Shown piece after piece: positions 22,830-33,463 of a stretch of DNA of 33,463 nucleotides. Both the position numbers and the translations under genes were made by a program. Each line of letters starts with the position of its first letter. Within the stretch, counting starts at the first letter, position 1. The stretch is from positions 1-33,463 of the IMG/VR virus record IMGVR_UViG_2548876860_000012. One strand, written 5' to 3'. The notes below the pieces were generated by a model, which was not told where the DNA came from, did not search any database, and saw nothing but the letters and a program-made list of their open reading frames with translations. The DNA is from a virus (taxonomy: Duplodnaviria > Heunggongvirae > Uroviricota > Caudoviricetes).

Positions 22830-23290
22830 TCTTCACCCGATGCAGCGCGCTTGCTTCTTTTCCGTAAGCACCGCTCACGACGCGCCAGAAAATTGTTTCG
22901 TTCTGGCTGGGAGTGGCTTTCACGGAATGCCGCCATCCACACCGTTGCAGCACGACGGTATAAGCCCCTGGACTCCAGTTCTTCAGCCTGGCGGGTCAGG
23001 CACAAAATCACCCGGGGATCGTTAGTGCCGACATAGAAATTGCGCACAGGTCTGGTTTCACGAACTGGTTGTGGTTCCGACTCCTGCGCTCTCTCAGTCA
23101 GGCGCGGGAAATGTCTGCGTGTATCTCCTTCACAACGGTGAGCCACACGCCCACTCTGACGTAACTTGCTTGCTGACTGCAGAACGCGCTGCCGTGAGTA
23201 ACCTGCAAAAGCATCCGCAATGTCTCCGGAAGTACAGCCCGGATGGGCTTCAATGAATTTCTGAACGTCATTCAAAAGACTCATGCTCAC
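22796..23290 (-). CDS. Putative PerC/ANR-like regulator
   Basis: 164-aa basic ORF; the segment AEELESRGLYRRAATVWMAAF resembles PerC-family motifs. Weak call. Confidence 0.3.
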   Translation of the reverse strand: MSMSLLNDVQKFIEAHPGCTSGDIADAFAGYSRQRVLQSASKLRQSGRVAHRCEGDTRRHFPRLTERAQESEPQPVRETRPVRNFYVGTNDPRVILCLTRQAEELESRGLYRRAATVWMAAFRESHSQPERNNFLARRERCLRKRSKRAASGEEWYLSGNYVGA

Positions 23291-24228
23291 CCCCTGAATC
23301 CTGCCGGGATCTGGCTGTAGTCCACATTGTCGTAACTGGCTTTGAAGTACGGGTCTTCGCGTTTTTCTGTGTACGTGCTGACGGACGGCGATAAGCGCAG
23401 GGAAAGCTCATCCCATTTTTCCCGCAGCTTCGACGGGCTGAGCACGTTACGGCACCAGAACGGATCGCGGCTGACGCGGCTGTACATCTCGCAGATTTGT
23501 TTGTGAGTACGACCATCCTGCACACACATCAGGCGTATTTCGTTTGCCCATGCTGTCCAGTTCGGTTCTTTGGGACGTACCACTTCGCCGTCACATTCGG
23601 CGGCCTGCTCGTACAGAGCGATGATTTTTTTCCAGAGCCACTGTGCGCAGGTCAAATCATCCTGCGTCCCCCACTGGCGCTTTTTAGGGCTGAATACAAC
23701 CGCATCAGGATGGCGAGTTAAAAAATCCTGTTCAGCCGTCTGCGTGTCCGGTTGCGAAGCGTCCGGACGAGAAGGTTTTTTATCTGACGGATCATGTTTT
23801 GATTTTACTGACGGATCCCCGCCAGATTCTGACGGGTGAAAACCCGCTTTTTTGCCAGATTTCGACGCATCAAATTTTGACGGGTCAGATTTTGATGCGT
23901 CAGATTTTGACGGGTCAGAATCTGACAGTTGAGAAAATGCCGCTGCCTGAAGCTTCGCAACGTTAAGCTGATAAACATTCGACGCATTGCGGTTACCCTG
24001 GCGACGCGCCTTACGCGTTAACCAGCCTTCTGCTTCCAGCCGTGCGATAGCCGTTCTGACGGTACTCATTCCCGCGCCAATCTGGCGGGCAATGGTTTCA
24101 ATTGATGGCCAGCACACACCTTCGTCATTACTGAAATCAGCCAGGCGGGCCATAATTGCCACGCTGGATAATTTCATGCCTGATGCAGCGCAACCATCCC
24201 ATACATAGCCGGTTAATTTAGTGCTCAT
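23287..24228 (-). CDS. Replication initiation protein (O-like) with iteron-encoded linker
   Basis: 313-aa ORF with an HTH-like N-terminus, an internal repetitive linker (DPSKSDASKSDPSKFDASKS) encoded by 15-bp DNA repeats, and a C-terminal domain. Confidence 0.65.
   Translation of the reverse strand: MSTKLTGYVWDGCAASGMKLSSVAIMARLADFSNDEGVCWPSIETIARQIGAGMSTVRTAIARLEAEGWLTRKARRQGNRNASNVYQLNVAKLQAAAFSQLSDSDPSKSDASKSDPSKFDASKSGKKAGFHPSESGGDPSVKSKHDPSDKKPSRPDASQPDTQTAEQDFLTRHPDAVVFSPKKRQWGTQDDLTCAQWLWKKIIALYEQAAECDGEVVRPKEPNWTAWANEIRLMCVQDGRTHKQICEMYSRVSRDPFWCRNVLSPSKLREKWDELSLRLSPSVSTYTEKREDPYFKASYDNVDYSQIPAGFRG
23783..23930. repeat. Iteron-like direct repeats (candidate replication origin) inside the replication gene
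   Basis: About eight copies of a TGACGG(G/A)TCA-like core (tctgacggatca, actgacggatcc, tctgacgggtga, ttcgacgcatca, tttgacgggtca, tttgatgcgtca, tttgacgggtca, tctgacagttga); the last four are at 15-bp period. Confidence 0.6.
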
Positions 24229-24576: not shown

Positions 24577-25235
24577 GCGTTAGTTTCTCCACAGTCACGA
24601 CACGCCACGGCGCCCGGAGCTGCACACTCGCGGGCGTCACTACTTTCTGAAACGCAAAAGATTTTGTAGACCAGAGCTGCATGCTCCTGCAGCTTCGAAA
24701 TTGAGAGGTACAGCTCATCGTTAATTGCTGTCTTCTCATGCGGTTCCACCACACCGTCTTCAATTGCTGAACGAATCTGTCTGGAATAACTGCCGATCTG
24801 TTCAATGACTTCCAGCAGACGCTGGTTAATATCGGCATTGTCCACATCCTCGACGTCAGGAAGAGACACAAAGATGCCATTTGCAGACTGCGCCACAGCG
24901 TCAGCAATGAAGTGAGTTCCACCAGCACGTTGCAAAATCATTGCCCATCCCAGCGGGAAAATCTGATCGCCATCGGCACGAAGGCGGTTAAATAATGCGT
25001 TTTCTGTTACGTCCAGCCAGTCAGCAGCTTCAGCGTAACCCCCCGGCAACGCTGCGATAGTTTTTCTGACAGCTTTCACGTACCACTCAGGCTGTTTTTC
25101 TACTTTCCAGTGATGCTTACCCACGGTTAACTCCTCGTTTCTGTGGTTACGTTTACGCAGCTGAACCGCTAACTTTTGAATAGCACTCAGGTAATCCATC
25201 ATTTGGATTGGGGTAAATATCAGGACGCAGTTCAT
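24573..25235 (-). CDS. Early regulatory protein (CII-like/YdaT-like, tentative)
   Basis: 220-aa ORF directly downstream of cro-like; its 5' end overlaps cro by 83 nt, so the true start is probably internal. Confidence 0.35.
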
Positions 25236-25416
25236 GAGGGGTCACGGACCAGTTTCCCAACTCACAAAGTTGTAAAACCCGTTCTGACGGGACTTGATTG
25301 TTAATTACCCAATTAGCGACGGATTGAGTGGACTTAAAACCAAAGTGACGGGCTACTTCAGATAAAGATTTTCCCGCAGCTTTTACTGCTTTCTCTGTGT
25401 AGTTTTGAGATGACAT
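25153..25416 (-). CDS. Cro-like HTH regulator
   Basis: 87-aa ORF transcribed divergently from the CI gene, with GGAGGAG Shine-Dalgarno upstream and an HTH-like segment (SLSEVARHFGFKSTQSVANWV). Confidence 0.7.
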   Translation of the reverse strand: MSSQNYTEKAVKAAGKSLSEVARHFGFKSTQSVANWVINNQVPSERVLQLCELGNWSVTPHELRPDIYPNPNDGLPECYSKVSGSAA

Positions 25417-25532
25417 ACCTTTCTCCTCCGAAATTCAGAGGGATGATGCTACTTAAAATAGCAAAATGCAACTACTTAAAATAGAAATGACTAGCGTATG
25501 TGATGCGAGTAATCTTCTACCTATGGTAGAAG
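25417..25532. promoter_or_regulatory. Divergent immunity promoter/operator region (OR-like)
   Basis: Two copies of the 13-mer CTACTTAAAATAG 23 bp apart (25449-25461 and 25472-25484) between cro-like and cI-like genes, plus an inverted repeat CTTCTACC-TAT-GGTAGAAG at 25514-25532. Confidence 0.6.
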
Positions 25533-26227
25533 AACAGAAGTATCCAGATTTCGCCAAGAGACTAAACGAGCTAATGACAAACAAGGGAATTTCTGTCACC
25601 CAACTCAAAAGTCTTGTGGGCGTTACATATGAAATGGCGCGGCGATACACAATCGGCGCTGCGAAGCCTCGTGCCTCTGTCATGAATAAACTTGCATTGG
25701 CTCTGGGGGTATCAGCTTCATATTTAGAATATGGTGTTGGCGAGAGAGAAGGATGTAAGGAAATGGCAAGCATCCCCAATCCAACAAAACCCGATGTATA
25801 CAGGATAGAAGTTTTGGATCTTAGCGTTAGCGCAGGACCTGGGACCTATATGCTTTCAGACTATGTTGATGTGCTCTACGCCATTGAGTTCACAACAGAG
25901 CATGCCCGTTCTCTTTTCGGTAATCGTTCTCAAGATGATATTAAAGTTATGACTGTAAATGGCGACAGCATGTCCCCTACTCTAGTTTCCGGAGATCGAC
26001 TGTTTGTCGACATTTCTGTTCGCAACTTCCAAACTGATGGTGTTTACTCTTTCGTTTATGGTAAGACGTTCCACGTTAAACGTCTACAAATGCAAGGCAA
26101 CAAACTCGCCGTTCTTTCGGATAATCCAGCCTATGAGAAATGGTACATTGATGAGAAGTCCCAAGATCAACTTTATGTTATGGGCAAAGCATTGATACAC
26201 GAATCAATTAAATACAACCGGCTTTAG
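25466..26227 (+). CDS. CI-type prophage repressor (HTH plus S24 LexA-like peptidase domain)
   Basis: 253-aa ORF with an HTH N-terminus (ISVTQLKSLVGVTYEMARRY) and S24 motif VNGDSMSPTL. Start is ambiguous (25466 or the internal ATG at 25523). Confidence 0.8.
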   Translation: MQLLKIEMTSVCDASNLLPMVEEQKYPDFAKRLNELMTNKGISVTQLKSLVGVTYEMARRYTIGAAKPRASVMNKLALALGVSASYLEYGVGEREGCKEMASIPNPTKPDVYRIEVLDLSVSAGPGTYMLSDYVDVLYAIEFTTEHARSLFGNRSQDDIKVMTVNGDSMSPTLVSGDRLFVDISVRNFQTDGVYSFVYGKTFHVKRLQMQGNKLAVLSDNPAYEKWYIDEKSQDQLYVMGKALIHESIKYNRL

Positions 26228-26397
26228 TTCTTCATTTAGACTATAGAACTAAAGGTAAAAAAATAATATTTAGCAAGCAAGTGCTATTACTAATAGTTGT
26301 TTTACTCTCTTATTTTTATTAAACATTATCATTAACAATATAAAATAATTACCCAGCGTAAATTACAATATGCTGGGGGTCGAAAGGATAGAGAAAC

Positions 26398-27474
26398 ATG
26401 ACAAAATCAATTTGTTTTTTTAATCATAAAGGTGGGGTAAGTAAAACCACAACAACCTTCAATCTTGGATGGGCACTTGCGGATGAAGGCAAGAAAGTAT
26501 TGATGGTTGACCTTGATTCGCAATGTAATCTAACAGGAATGGTTCTTGGCTATGAAAAGATTGATGAGGGTTTAGATTCTTTTTATTCTAGCAGAGATAA
26601 CTTAACTCTTGGACCTATTGTAGAATATTTGATTAATGGCGGACAACCTGAAGCATACCTTGAAAAAGAAACGGGAAAATTACACCCTACACTGCATGAA
26701 AACCTTCTGCTTCTTCCCGGACATTTAGATGTTTCGGACTTAGATTCACAGATAAGTGTTTCTCTAAAAATTGCTGCTGGTATTCCTGCTACAAGAAATA
26801 TACCAGGGAACCTGCCAAAAATATTACAGCTAATCGCCTTGAAGAATAATATTGATTACATTCTTTATGATCTCAGCCCTAATGTTGGAGGTTTAAATGA
26901 AGTAGTTCTCATGTCAAGTGACTATTTTATCGTACCTGTAGCTCCAGACTTTTTTTGCTGGCAAGCAATTCGCTCTCTCTCAAAAAATATACCTCGCTGG
27001 CACAAAGAATTAGCATTATTTAAAGAAAATAATGATGGTAACTCTTCACAATCAATTAAAAATGCACCGCAGTTTCTAGGCATGATTCAGCAGAGATACA
27101 GGCCGCGTAAAGGAGCACCTGTAAAATCTTTCGAAAAATGGATGGCAGCTATCCGTGATGCTGTTGATTCGATCTTAGTGCCAAATCTAGAAAAAATTAC
27201 CTGCATAATTCCACGAGATAAAGTGCAACATGCAATTAACAAAACAACAGTCAGTGGAGATTTATCAGCCTATGATCTTGCGCATATTTCCGATTTCAAC
27301 TCATTAATCGCAATAAGCCAACAACTAGCGACACCTGTTTTCTCCATCAGTGATCAGCAAATTCGCGATTCAGGGCAATTTGGGCATGCCTTAAATACAA
27401 TGAAATCAAGCAGAGACGCCTTTAACGAACAATTTAAAGGGCTGGCTCAACGAGTTCTAGAACTTACAAAGTAA
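26398..27474 (+). CDS. Orphan ParA/MinD-family P-loop ATPase
   Basis: 358-aa ORF with deviant Walker A (NHKGGVSKTTTTFNL), A' (VLMVDLDSQ) and B-like (IDYILYDLSPN) motifs and AAGGA Shine-Dalgarno. AT-rich; no ParB-like partner in the window. Confidence 0.7.
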   Translation: MTKSICFFNHKGGVSKTTTTFNLGWALADEGKKVLMVDLDSQCNLTGMVLGYEKIDEGLDSFYSSRDNLTLGPIVEYLINGGQPEAYLEKETGKLHPTLHENLLLLPGHLDVSDLDSQISVSLKIAAGIPATRNIPGNLPKILQLIALKNNIDYILYDLSPNVGGLNEVVLMSSDYFIVPVAPDFFCWQAIRSLSKNIPRWHKELALFKENNDGNSSQSIKNAPQFLGMIQQRYRPRKGAPVKSFEKWMAAIRDAVDSILVPNLEKITCIIPRDKVQHAINKTTVSGDLSAYDLAHISDFNSLIAISQQLATPVFSISDQQIRDSGQFGHALNTMKSSRDAFNEQFKGLAQRVLELTK

Positions 27475-27481
27475 TGCATGT

Positions 27482-27515
27482 GCCCGGCCGCATAACCGGG
27501 CTTTACTCTTCTTTC
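27482..27515 (+). terminator. Rho-independent terminator after the ParA-like gene
   Basis: GCCCGG-ccgcataa-CCGGGC hairpin followed by the T-rich tract TTTACTCTTCTTTCT, starting 8 nt after the stop codon. Confidence 0.55.
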
Positions 27516-27694
27516 TCCCTGATTAATCTCATAAAAAACTCCCTCCTCATAATTCACTATGCTCAATACCTACTCCAACTTCGTGCGATATTTTCAGTTT
27601 ACAGCATAGTAAATCAGCAAAAACATTTAACTTTCAATTAATTATAGAAAAATCATAGACAACAACAAATATCTACTTTTTGTTGTTGATTTTT

Positions 27695-27717
27695 GCTACT
27701 TTAAGTAGCAATATAAT
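27695..27717 (+). promoter_or_regulatory. OL/pL-like operator-promoter
   Basis: 15-bp palindrome GCTACTTTAAGTAGC (27695-27709), closely related to the OR repeat, immediately upstream of a perfect TATAAT (27712-27717). Confidence 0.55.
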
Positions 27718-27918
27718 GTAAGCTATCACGGACAGGCAGGACGCCCACGAAGTAGCCGCCTGGGGCATATGAAGTCCAGGATGATTCGTTGAGTCATGTT
27801 GTGCCACTAGGCACTCATGTTAAAGCAGGTGTATGAAATGAAAGTCCAGATTTTAAACAATAACTGTGAAGTCGTTTGGGCGTAAAACATGACCGCGCGT
27901 AGACCAAGGGAGGAAAAA

Positions 27919-28095
27919 GTGGGAATAGTTAGAAATCAAGCAGATATATTGAAAATCAGCTCTGAATTGCTTGGAGTTTTGAAAAGTGAGCTCACCGCAC
28001 ATGGCATCGAGCCCACTGACGAAAATTTAAGTTGGGTTTTGTCGATTATTCAACAATCACTCAAGCCCAGCCTCAGCAAACTTTTTATCGAGTAG
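27919..28095 (+). CDS. Small hypothetical protein, first ORF of the early-left operon
   Basis: Track ORF 27889-28095; preferred start is GTG at 27919, preceded by AAGGGAGG at 27906-27913. Not Arg-rich, so not N-like. Confidence 0.35.
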   Translation: MGIVRNQADILKISSELLGVLKSELTAHGIEPTDENLSWVLSIIQQSLKPSLSKLFIE

Positions 28096-28248
28096 TGCTT
28101 CGAACTTATCGTAAAGCTTGCTTATGTCGTCTATCGGGTTTTCTGACGTACTGTAATTTTTATCTGATGTCATGGCAGCAGTCTGATATGCAGTGTGAGT
28201 CTTAACCGATAGTTGGAATAAATAAAGAATTTTTTCTTCTTTGGTCAT
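28057..28248 (-). CDS. Small hypothetical protein antisense to the early-left operon
   Basis: ATG at 28248 with AAGGAA Shine-Dalgarno 7 nt upstream (MTKEEKILYLFQLSVKTHTAYQTAAMTSDKNYSTSENPIDDISKLYDKFEALLDKKFAEAGLE); 3' ends converge on and overlap the 27919-28095 ORF. Confidence 0.35.
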   Translation of the reverse strand: MTKEEKILYLFQLSVKTHTAYQTAAMTSDKNYSTSENPIDDISKLYDKFEALLDKKFAEAGLE

Positions 28249-28449
28249 AACTATTTCCTTCTTGGCTATATGAAAACACCAAGATACCACCGAGCCTGAA
28301 GTGGTGAAAAGACAGGCACATAACAGCTAAGTATTTTCAACCAGAGAGAATCCTTAGCGTTGTGGTGAATGCGGCTCAGCGCACGCGGGTTAAGGTTGAG
28401 ACTGACAGTCGACCTTCTGTGGATACCCACCCGCCTGGTGTGCAACCTT

Positions 28450-32127: not shown

Positions 32128-33024
32128 ATGCAGTTGTATGCCTTACGTGTGTTAATGAGACCGCGCGATCCAGACCTCTTTTCGAAAGGAACTGTTCAGA
32201 AAGATATCTCTCATTTTGAAAATGCTATGGTTATCGCTGCAAAAAATTTACACATGACGTCATCAACACCTTCCGTTCATAAGAAAACTAGTTACACCCT
32301 GAAATTGAGCATAAAACCTACTGATGGTGTTATGGCTGGAGTCATATCAAAGCTGCAAAAGATTAAAGGACATGATAAAGACTTTCGAGAGTACGATGTA
32401 GACAACTATCCACCTATCGTATGGATTTGGGACAAAGTAGAGCAGGTGTTACTGGTTGAGAGGAAAACCGCTGTTTTCAAGGATGCGCAACAAGTTGCTA
32501 AAGCGTTCGAAGATCTAGCCAATAACGACTATTTGGCTCAGTTAGGACTTAGAATATTTATAGAGCCTTGTCTTGAAATGGAAGATTTTTGGTCAGAATA
32601 CCATAGGCTTCAATTTATCGACAAAGTCAGCTTTACGCTGATTACTCCGAATATCTTCGGAAGCAGTAAGCAAGCGTTAACCAATGATTTACGGAAGCTT
32701 GAAAAAGATACCAATGCAAATACTGTGACCACTATTTTTGAAAACAAAGATGGCAATTTGAAACTCAAAGGTTCTCATTGGGCTGAGACTCTTGTTGACT
32801 GGGTCAAAGATGGTGGCGGGTCATGGTTGATTAAAGGACGTAAGACACTCAAGTCAAAATCTACTACGGTATCCAGTAATCAGACAGCCAAAATCGTGCT
32901 GATCGAAGGTGAGATATCAGAAATTGAACTTGATGGCTACTCAGCAAATGATATTAAAGAGATCATAGCATTACATCAAAACAGGTATACGTTCAAAAAT
33001 GCAAAATCTAACTGTCTGGATTAA
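32128..33024 (+). CDS. Hypothetical protein, first gene of an AT-rich two-gene operon
   Basis: 298-aa ORF with good Shine-Dalgarno; no motif I recognise. Lys/Asp/Glu-rich and AT-rich, unlike the prophage structural genes. Confidence 0.6.
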   Translation: MQLYALRVLMRPRDPDLFSKGTVQKDISHFENAMVIAAKNLHMTSSTPSVHKKTSYTLKLSIKPTDGVMAGVISKLQKIKGHDKDFREYDVDNYPPIVWIWDKVEQVLLVERKTAVFKDAQQVAKAFEDLANNDYLAQLGLRIFIEPCLEMEDFWSEYHRLQFIDKVSFTLITPNIFGSSKQALTNDLRKLEKDTNANTVTTIFENKDGNLKLKGSHWAETLVDWVKDGGGSWLIKGRKTLKSKSTTVSSNQTAKIVLIEGEISEIELDGYSANDIKEIIALHQNRYTFKNAKSNCLD

Positions 33025-33463
33025 AGCTATAGCTACCTTCTTTTTGTGCTTAGCATTAGCATCGACTGATAAAACCATTTATACCTTACTTGAGCAGGCT
33101 TCTGCTGGAGTAATAGGTTCAATACTTGGAGGTATTGCCGCAGGTATCTCCGTTATCTTCGGAATTTTGGCTGTCATTAATAAGGGCGAGAAAAGCACAG
33201 ACTTTACGGACTATTTAGATAGTTTAGAATTAGATTTGAAATTACTGGTCATGTGTCTGGCAGTAACAATCTTCCTTCCCTATTTACGTAATTATGACAT
33301 ACCACTAGTAAATTATCCTCAGCACGAATTTATCCCTTCTAAAGGCAAGCTATTTACTGCTTTAGAACTTTTTGCTATCGTGCTATCTCTTAACCTCATT
33401 GCAGAAGTGATTAGCTGCATGATTTTAGTGGTTAAAAAAAGTTTCAAAATTGAATCAAAGTGA
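32999..33463 (+). CDS. Small four-TM membrane protein, second gene of the operon
   Basis: 154-aa ORF overlapping the upstream gene by 26 nt; four hydrophobic helices (AIATFFLCLALAS; GVIGSILGGIAAGISVIFGILAVI; LKLLVMCLAVTIFLPYL; ELFAIVLSLNLIAEVISCMILVV). Its stop codon is the last 3 nt of the window. Confidence 0.6.
   Translation: MQNLTVWIKAIATFFLCLALASTDKTIYTLLEQASAGVIGSILGGIAAGISVIFGILAVINKGEKSTDFTDYLDSLELDLKLLVMCLAVTIFLPYLRNYDIPLVNYPQHEFIPSKGKLFTALELFAIVLSLNLIAEVISCMILVVKKSFKIESK

Follow-up and report, generated by a model that had tools for sequence, protein, structure and literature searches.

On balance, and with modest confidence, the gene described here is read as an anti-phage or superinfection-exclusion gene (a moron) that is expressed in lysogens, works as a single protein and belongs to a family sister to GiPD474. 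It encodes a solo ATPase of the ParA/MinD class with 358 aa (26398-27474, +), and lies behind the cI-type repressor gene of an E. coli prophage. The whole stretch of DNA analyzed, 33,463 nucleotides long, is called the window below. GiPD474 (STM474_RS13505), a ParA/MinD-like AAA_31 protein of 361 aa, is encoded by one gene of the Gifsy-1 immunity region in S. Typhimurium 4/74 (Bosma, Noireaux & Bowden 2025; PMC12724215). GiPD474 alone lowers the plating of FO1, T4 and Alf5 by ~5 logs in both Salmonella and E. coli K-12, and it is strongly expressed in exponential-phase lysogens (PMC12724215). Since a GiPD474 relative takes the same slot in sister prophages, defence is more likely than DNA partition for the window gene. 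Superinfection exclusion was one of two roles offered in the first-pass annotation, and it is the best-supported one through this shared slot and a distant homology to GiPD474, against which stands an identity of 22%. For the other, positioning of host or phage structures, no evidence was found.

The window is a prophage of the SfV/CPS-53 (yfdN-yfdT) kind, and many E. coli chromosomes match its region 25400-28400 with 99% identity. The minus strand carries the head, tail and lysis genes, while the early-left genes to the right of OL are read on the plus strand toward xis and int, by which the prophage encodes its own excisionase and integrase. No tRNA gene was found in the window. Just past the integrase gene there are two ORFs, 32128-33024 (+, 298 aa) and 32999-33463 (+, at least 154 aa, running off the end), for which neither Pfam nor PADLOC gave a match, and these may be additional cargo at the end of the prophage that has the attachment site.

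In the immunity region, a cro-like regulator gene (25153-25416, -), an 87-aa ORF called 'transcriptional regulator' in the RefSeq records of sister prophages, diverges from cI. The cI-type repressor gene (25466-26227, +) matches Peptidase_S24 (E 1.6e-16) and HTH_3 (E 2e-5) of Pfam; in RefSeq the repressor is annotated as an XRE family regulator of 705 nt, the start of which is equivalent to 25523. The OR region (25447-25488) holds two copies of the operator CTACTTAAAATAG, at 25449-25461 and 25472-25484, with direct and inverted repeats, and the OL region (27669-27710) holds a palindromic operator, CTACTTTAAGTAG (27696-27708), together with a degenerate copy. By pattern search, the 13-bp operator CTACTTWAARTAG has just three sites in the 33-kb window, at 25449, 25472 and 27696. 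Moreover, OR and OL are 81% complementary as the two arms of a 42-nt inverted repeat. An intrinsic-terminator-like hairpin with a T-rich tail (27482-27515, +) was recognized between the ATPase gene and OL by a terminator scan and RNA folding; the hairpin itself (27482-27501) has a GCCCGG/CCGGGC stem of 6 bp, all GC, with -12.5 kcal/mol and a z of -1.7. From the operator sites and the inverted repeat of OR and OL, it follows that the lambda-like order of cI, cargo, terminator and OL is real. The initial description of an orphan ParA-like ATPase in the slot that lambda uses for rexAB is therefore borne out, with the interval 26228-27515 beginning at the first base past the cI stop codon (26227) and closing with the T-rich tail of the terminator. 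The gene also has the AT-rich composition that had been taken as a mark of acquisition: its GC content of 37.8%, against 51.2% for the window, makes it compositionally foreign. A 55-aa ORF at 27474-27641 was considered as a rexB-like second gene and was rejected, being overlapped with the terminator and not conserved. Beside OL, a TATAAT is read directly in the sequence at 27712-27717; the -35 element of pL could not be placed from sequence. The first ORF to the right of OL (27889-28095, +, 68 aa, PHROG 15476, 'ClpX C4-type zinc finger protein' in RefSeq) occupies the position of N in lambda, and no N-like antiterminator was recognized.

The spacer of 170 bp between cI and the ATPase gene (26228-26397, +) is AT-rich. 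The terminator scan found no terminator-like site in it, so that the sequence is compatible with co-transcription of the two genes. The spacer has a single weak promoter-like site (26320-26349), which covers the motif CATTAACAATATAAAATAAT at 26330-26349. A motif of the form ATTAACA...TATAAAATAA(A) recurs upstream of ATPase genes in different prophages (26330-26349 of the window against the loci L024, L025 and L040), and the partners resembling the spacer motif in the upstream alignment are from Klebsiella, ST160 and Pectobacterium. This shared motif is suggestive only. In the upstream alignments, no convincing -35/-10 geometry could be assigned for an own promoter of the cassette.

Homologues that share the upstream motif begin 11-12 codons earlier, for example with MFEENTQDQLPM-PKSIC. 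The equivalent ATG in the window (26370) is out of frame, and translation must begin at 26398. That the N-terminal leader of some homologues is absent or out of frame here, and that several strains have IS1 (IS3 in strain 550) inserted just behind the ATPase gene, ahead of the early-left genes, could be taken as signs of a decaying passenger gene that has no current function. This can hardly be credited, as the ORF is intact with at least 99% identity in 109 of 109 E. coli genomes, some 90 positions do not vary among 37 diverse homologues, all catalytic residues included, and many sequences in the same alignment share the M-x-K-S-I start position of the window gene. In E. coli SM107, such an IS insertion (L027:22273-22970) splits the immunity region from the genes at its right.

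The protein belongs to the ParA/MinD (SIMIBI) superfamily by its deviant Walker A motif with the signature lysine, an above-threshold profile match and the ParA fold. The Pfam family AAA_31 matches residues 3-204 with an E-value of 2.4e-29, above the curated cut-off, and CbiA matches as well. Walker A reads K11-G-G-V-S-K16-T17; the alignment of 37 homologues shows no variation at K11, G12, G13, K16 and T17, at D38 and D40 of Walker A' or at D158 of Walker B. Many family-specific positions are likewise constant, among them the loop around N134-P136-G137, which has low confidence in the structure model. The curated NCBIfam cut-offs of the named ParA, MinD, BcsQ, SopA and RepA families were not reached by any match, and the matches are those of the Walker A region: ParA_partition scored 55.5 against a cut-off of 180 with the match confined to residues 5-43, minD_bact 35.8 against 212.9, and the SopA profile 20.8 against 725. 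The C-terminal extension that had been noticed at first did not stand up to structure comparison, and the idea of an extension domain was rejected; the extra residues are insertions within the fold. The C-terminal helix (330-357; block-mean pLDDT 88-96) looks like part of the fold, and a separate C-terminal membrane-targeting helix, a MinD trait, was not evident in the model as judged by eye. No recognisable effector domain was found in the protein. In PADLOC-DB v2.0.0, in which RexAB is included, no system protein matches the ATPase beyond Walker A; the candidate PDC-M28B (two models), which matches the Walker A region at residues 3-51, was rejected as non-specific.

Compared with GiPD474, the window protein is a full-length distant homologue with 22-23% identity, and comparison of profiles by hhalign gives a probability of 99%. 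The window protein has GGVSKT as its Walker A where GiPD474 has GGVGKT, and the latter carries an N-terminal extension of 17 residues. The GiPD474 family was defined by at least 70% identity and at least 70% coverage (PMC12724215), and the window protein, at 22%, falls outside this definition. On the other hand, the window gene shares the family trait of being a single gene by a prophage cII/cro/repressor module. As for PADLOC, none of its models matches GiPD474.

The relation between the two ATPases is clearer at the level of the slot. The window gene is present in 109 of 5426 complete E. coli genomes, and an at least 99% identical cI allele precedes it in every one of them. A second cI allele, 90-95% (about 92%) identical, is found in 95 further genomes. 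Of three genomes with this allele that were examined, two have a ParA-family gene of 361 aa behind it, a GiPD474 orthologue (93% identity) carried by 71 E. coli genomes in all. In the Gifsy prophages of Salmonella, what comes after a 155-aa repressor of 94% identity is GiPD474 in some cases and, in others, a member of the window's own family with 73% identity. From the occupancy in E. coli and Gifsy, it follows that the window ATPase and GiPD474 are alternative cargo of one slot. The slot behind a 93% identical cI in E. coli ACN002 (L016:5304-6003) contains two small overlapping ORFs of 115 and 126 aa, which have sub-threshold Pfam and PADLOC matches only and are a third cargo type.

The names given to the protein, 'ParA-like partition protein' for PHROG 164 (matched over residues 1-356) and 'ParA family protein' or the like in RefSeq, together with its intact Walker motifs, would suit a true partition ATPase that serves an extrachromosomal phage or another replicon, with partner and centromere located elsewhere. 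Against this, the prophage is integrated and encodes its own integrase and excisionase, and all 110 copies in E. coli are chromosomal. No ParB gene is annotated in the sister prophages in RefSeq, and no repeats but the operators, and no centromere-like array, flank the ATPase gene, in agreement with the first-pass annotation, which had seen neither ParB nor centromere repeats. The sole tandem array of the window, four and a third copies of the 15-bp unit CAGATTTTGACGGGT at 23856-23919, sits within an O-like replication gene (23287-24228, -), and its repeats are probably origin iterons, as in lambda. As described above, the match to ParA_partition stays far under its cut-off and within the Walker A region. 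Furthermore, no conserved neighbour or partner was found across the 22 closest species-representative loci. A small convergent downstream gene was considered as a hidden partner and was rejected; such ORFs in 11 loci are mutually unrelated, and the window has none. A partition role is thus largely refuted, and we regard it as very improbable.

The family extends far beyond this slot. Relatives with 60-73% identity directly follow unrelated repressors in Klebsiella, Pseudomonas and the P22-like phages ST160 and SE1. In ST160 and SE1, the order is c2, DUF3024, ATPase and the N-like gp24; the DUF3024 gene (orf24 of ST160, L025:3521-3862) lies between c2 and the ParA-like gene, a gene of the same type is found in Morganella (L029:3418-3759), and the whole DUF3024 protein is covered by a match to the PADLOC candidate PDC-S43 (E 2e-41). 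A relative in Acinetobacter follows an Arc-type repressor, one in Chromobacterium is a moron in the tail region, and one in Megalodesulfovibrio is in a P4-like island, adjoining HicAB and DarT/Macro (DarTG). By genome scan, at least 539 species-representative genomes from many phyla hold a relative, and 277 representatives of 50%-identity clusters were found at E <= 1e-30. The neighbours in the 22 closest loci are heterogeneous, including housekeeping genes, ATPases of the OLD/AbiEii type, a methylase and HerA, and because an S24/HTH repressor is upstream in only 3 of the 22, a position 'always behind cI' is not a family rule. One side observation concerns a three-gene islet between murB and mnmE, near chromosomal origin genes (L028:4622-7636, Logan SRR21361704_118). 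It consists of a solo-clade ParA-like gene (+), a fusion of Polbeta-nucleotidyltransferase and HEPN (-), and a GiPD474-family ParA-like gene (-) which is 60% identical to GiPD474 and lies upstream of the HEPN gene; the solo-clade gene is convergent on the Polbeta-HEPN gene.

The fact that many close relatives adjoin housekeeping genes, outside prophages, counts against the defence reading. So does the degree of conservation to some extent, for 60-65% identity is kept from Enterobacteria to Desulfovibrio, which is unusually high for an immune sensor and fits a conserved cellular partner at least as well as recognition of a variable phage protein. Both observations could be explained if the gene were a moron for host physiology, similar to MinD, FlhG, FleN, BcsQ or McdA, that relocates or controls a conserved machine of the host (division, flagella, secretion or the nucleoid), so that the lysogen benefits without direct targeting of phages. 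The nearest folds are consistent with this, since they are those of positioning ATPases, namely ParA (8ray), McdA (6noo), MinD, FleN and BcsQ, and many of the relatives beside housekeeping genes are single-gene islets. However, the solo clade has no conserved neighbour or partner, the protein stays far under the NCBIfam cut-offs of MinD, BcsQ and the other named families, the model gives no sign of a C-terminal membrane-targeting helix apart from the fold, a defence phenotype is known for the slot-mate GiPD474, and distant relatives are tied to toxins (HEPN, peptidase) rather than to cellular machines. A host-physiology role is therefore held to be unlikely.

Those distant relatives are coupled to effectors in two ways. 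First, at 27 of the 80 species-representative loci retrieved, a HEPN gene of about 200-250 aa is found downstream on the same strand, 0-40 nt away. All 22 of the partners scanned against Pfam are HEPN_RiboL-PSP proteins with the RRNxIAHE motif. The ATPases of these dyads are all at most 41% identical to the window protein; as full-length homologues they show 37-41% identity over residues 1-357, and they share the loop N134-P136-G137 with it. In contrast to the dyads, the window gene and all relatives with at least 43% identity have no such HEPN gene, as judged by hmmsearch with the partner profile. In the Pf1 prophage record of P. aeruginosa (AY324828.1), an unannotated 175-aa ORF directly after the ParA-like 'Orf317' (L026:4022-4549, +) belongs to HEPN_RiboL-PSP (E 2.6e-9 in Pfam and 3.6e-42 with the partner profile), so that this filamentous prophage has a ParA-like/HEPN dyad at its accessory end. 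Second, an exhaustive profile search for long relatives gave 10 proteins, half of which have a C-terminal peptidase of the CE clan (Peptidase_C48/RickCE). These fusions (P0303, P0305, P0326, P0327 and P0329) are about 610-670 aa long and join a ParA-like module to Peptidase_C48/RickCE_cat. Another long relative, P0251 (1112 aa), has two ParA-like modules. From the HEPN coupling and the peptidase fusions, it is concluded that the ATPase module recurs as a nucleotide switch in conflict systems with exchangeable effectors. As far as sequence comparison can tell, HEPN or peptidase wiring shows that the module acts as a sensor or regulator in such systems, and the window ATPase looks like the same switch standing alone.

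Dyads of ParA/Soj-like ATPases and HEPN proteins were predicted to be toxin-antitoxin or abortive-infection modules, in which the ATPase is the antitoxin and not the killer (Anantharaman et al., 2013; PMC3710099). The published dyads name the MAE_18760 HEPN family (PMC3710099), whereas the partners found here score best as RiboL-PSP-HEPN. Given that the 37-41% identical homologues are the upstream genes of such dyads, the solo ATPase might be derived from the antitoxin half and act as an orphan antitoxin or anti-defence factor, which neutralises HEPN RNases or similar effectors, whether from the host or from rival elements, to the benefit of the prophage rather than the host. The convergence of a solo-clade gene on a Polbeta-HEPN gene in the islet described above would agree with this. 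However, the enterobacterial loci examined all lack a HEPN_RiboL-PSP partner, and E. coli K-12 becomes resistant with GiPD474 alone. The place of the window gene behind cI, active in the lysogenic state, is typical of defence cargo, whereas most anti-defence genes are early lytic genes. An orphan antitoxin is quite unlikely on these grounds.

Returning to anti-phage defence as the preferred reading, transfer of function from GiPD474 is weak because of the 22% identity, and the mechanistic steps are conjecture because the window protein has no recognisable effector domain. In the prophage state, transcription of the gene would come from the repressor promoter, by read-through, or would start in the region upstream of the gene itself. 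Judging from the motifs and the fold, the deviant Walker A with its signature lysine may support an ATP-sandwich dimer. By analogy with GiPD474, this dimer would serve as a nucleotide-dependent switch that engages a phage-derived or phage-altered target after DNA entry and stops the infection. As the prophage clade has no effector in cis, the ATPase might itself inhibit, for example through binding to DNA or to a factor of replication or assembly; alternatively, it might use a host factor. A bolder and rather doubtful proposal is that the solo clade as a whole constitutes a widespread single-protein immunity family, distinct from GiPD474 and derived from ATPase-HEPN or ATPase-peptidase modules, in which the ATPase has become the inhibitor. 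Such inhibition could be ATP-dependent coating or mislocalisation of incoming phage DNA, or could affect a replication or assembly factor. If a solo 'positioning' ATPase inhibits phages without a nuclease, pore or NADase effector, this would be a defence mechanism not yet described.

Defence genes next to repressors are familiar, and a ParA-like case has been in print since 2025, which leaves no novelty in the general idea. The window family is nevertheless distinct from GiPD474, at 22% identity and outside the 70% definition, and is absent from PADLOC v2. In a literature search for ParA-like proteins in exclusion or defence, the relevant matches were the GiPD474 paper and the 2013 HEPN survey only, and no description was found of the window family or of its relation to HEPN dyads and peptidase fusions; other matches for 'ParA' were irrelevant, such as the arabinose promoter 'Para' and ParB in AbiR. 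Should the gene indeed act in defence, the single case of GiPD474 would become a broader class of ParA-fold immune proteins. Its three configurations, solo, followed by a HEPN RNase gene, and fused to a CE-clan peptidase, are a natural series for asking how a ParA-type switch senses infection, with the solo form as the minimal one that has no effector. One of the two ATPases is carried by 109 and the other by 71 of the 5426 complete E. coli genomes, and such slot genes may limit the host range of phages for therapy or biocontrol.

Among known systems, lambda RexAB, BstA of BTP1 and remAIN of Gifsy-1 in 14028s are alike in arrangement. [quoted passage not shown] RexAB has two proteins and includes a membrane ion channel, BstA belongs to the KilA-N proteins, and remAIN consists of three genes; the window protein has no sequence or fold relationship to any of them. 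With the canonical positioning ATPases, type Ib ParA/Soj, MinD and McdA, the window protein shares the fold, but it has about 100 extra residues as insertions and remains far below the curated cut-offs, and its gene has neither a centromere nor a partner gene of the ParB, MinE or McdB type and sits in accessory slots of mobile elements. Finally, the structural-genomics protein DIP2308 of Corynebacterium diphtheriae (PDB 3pg5) is about 24-35% identical to the window protein, the value varying with the region that is taken.
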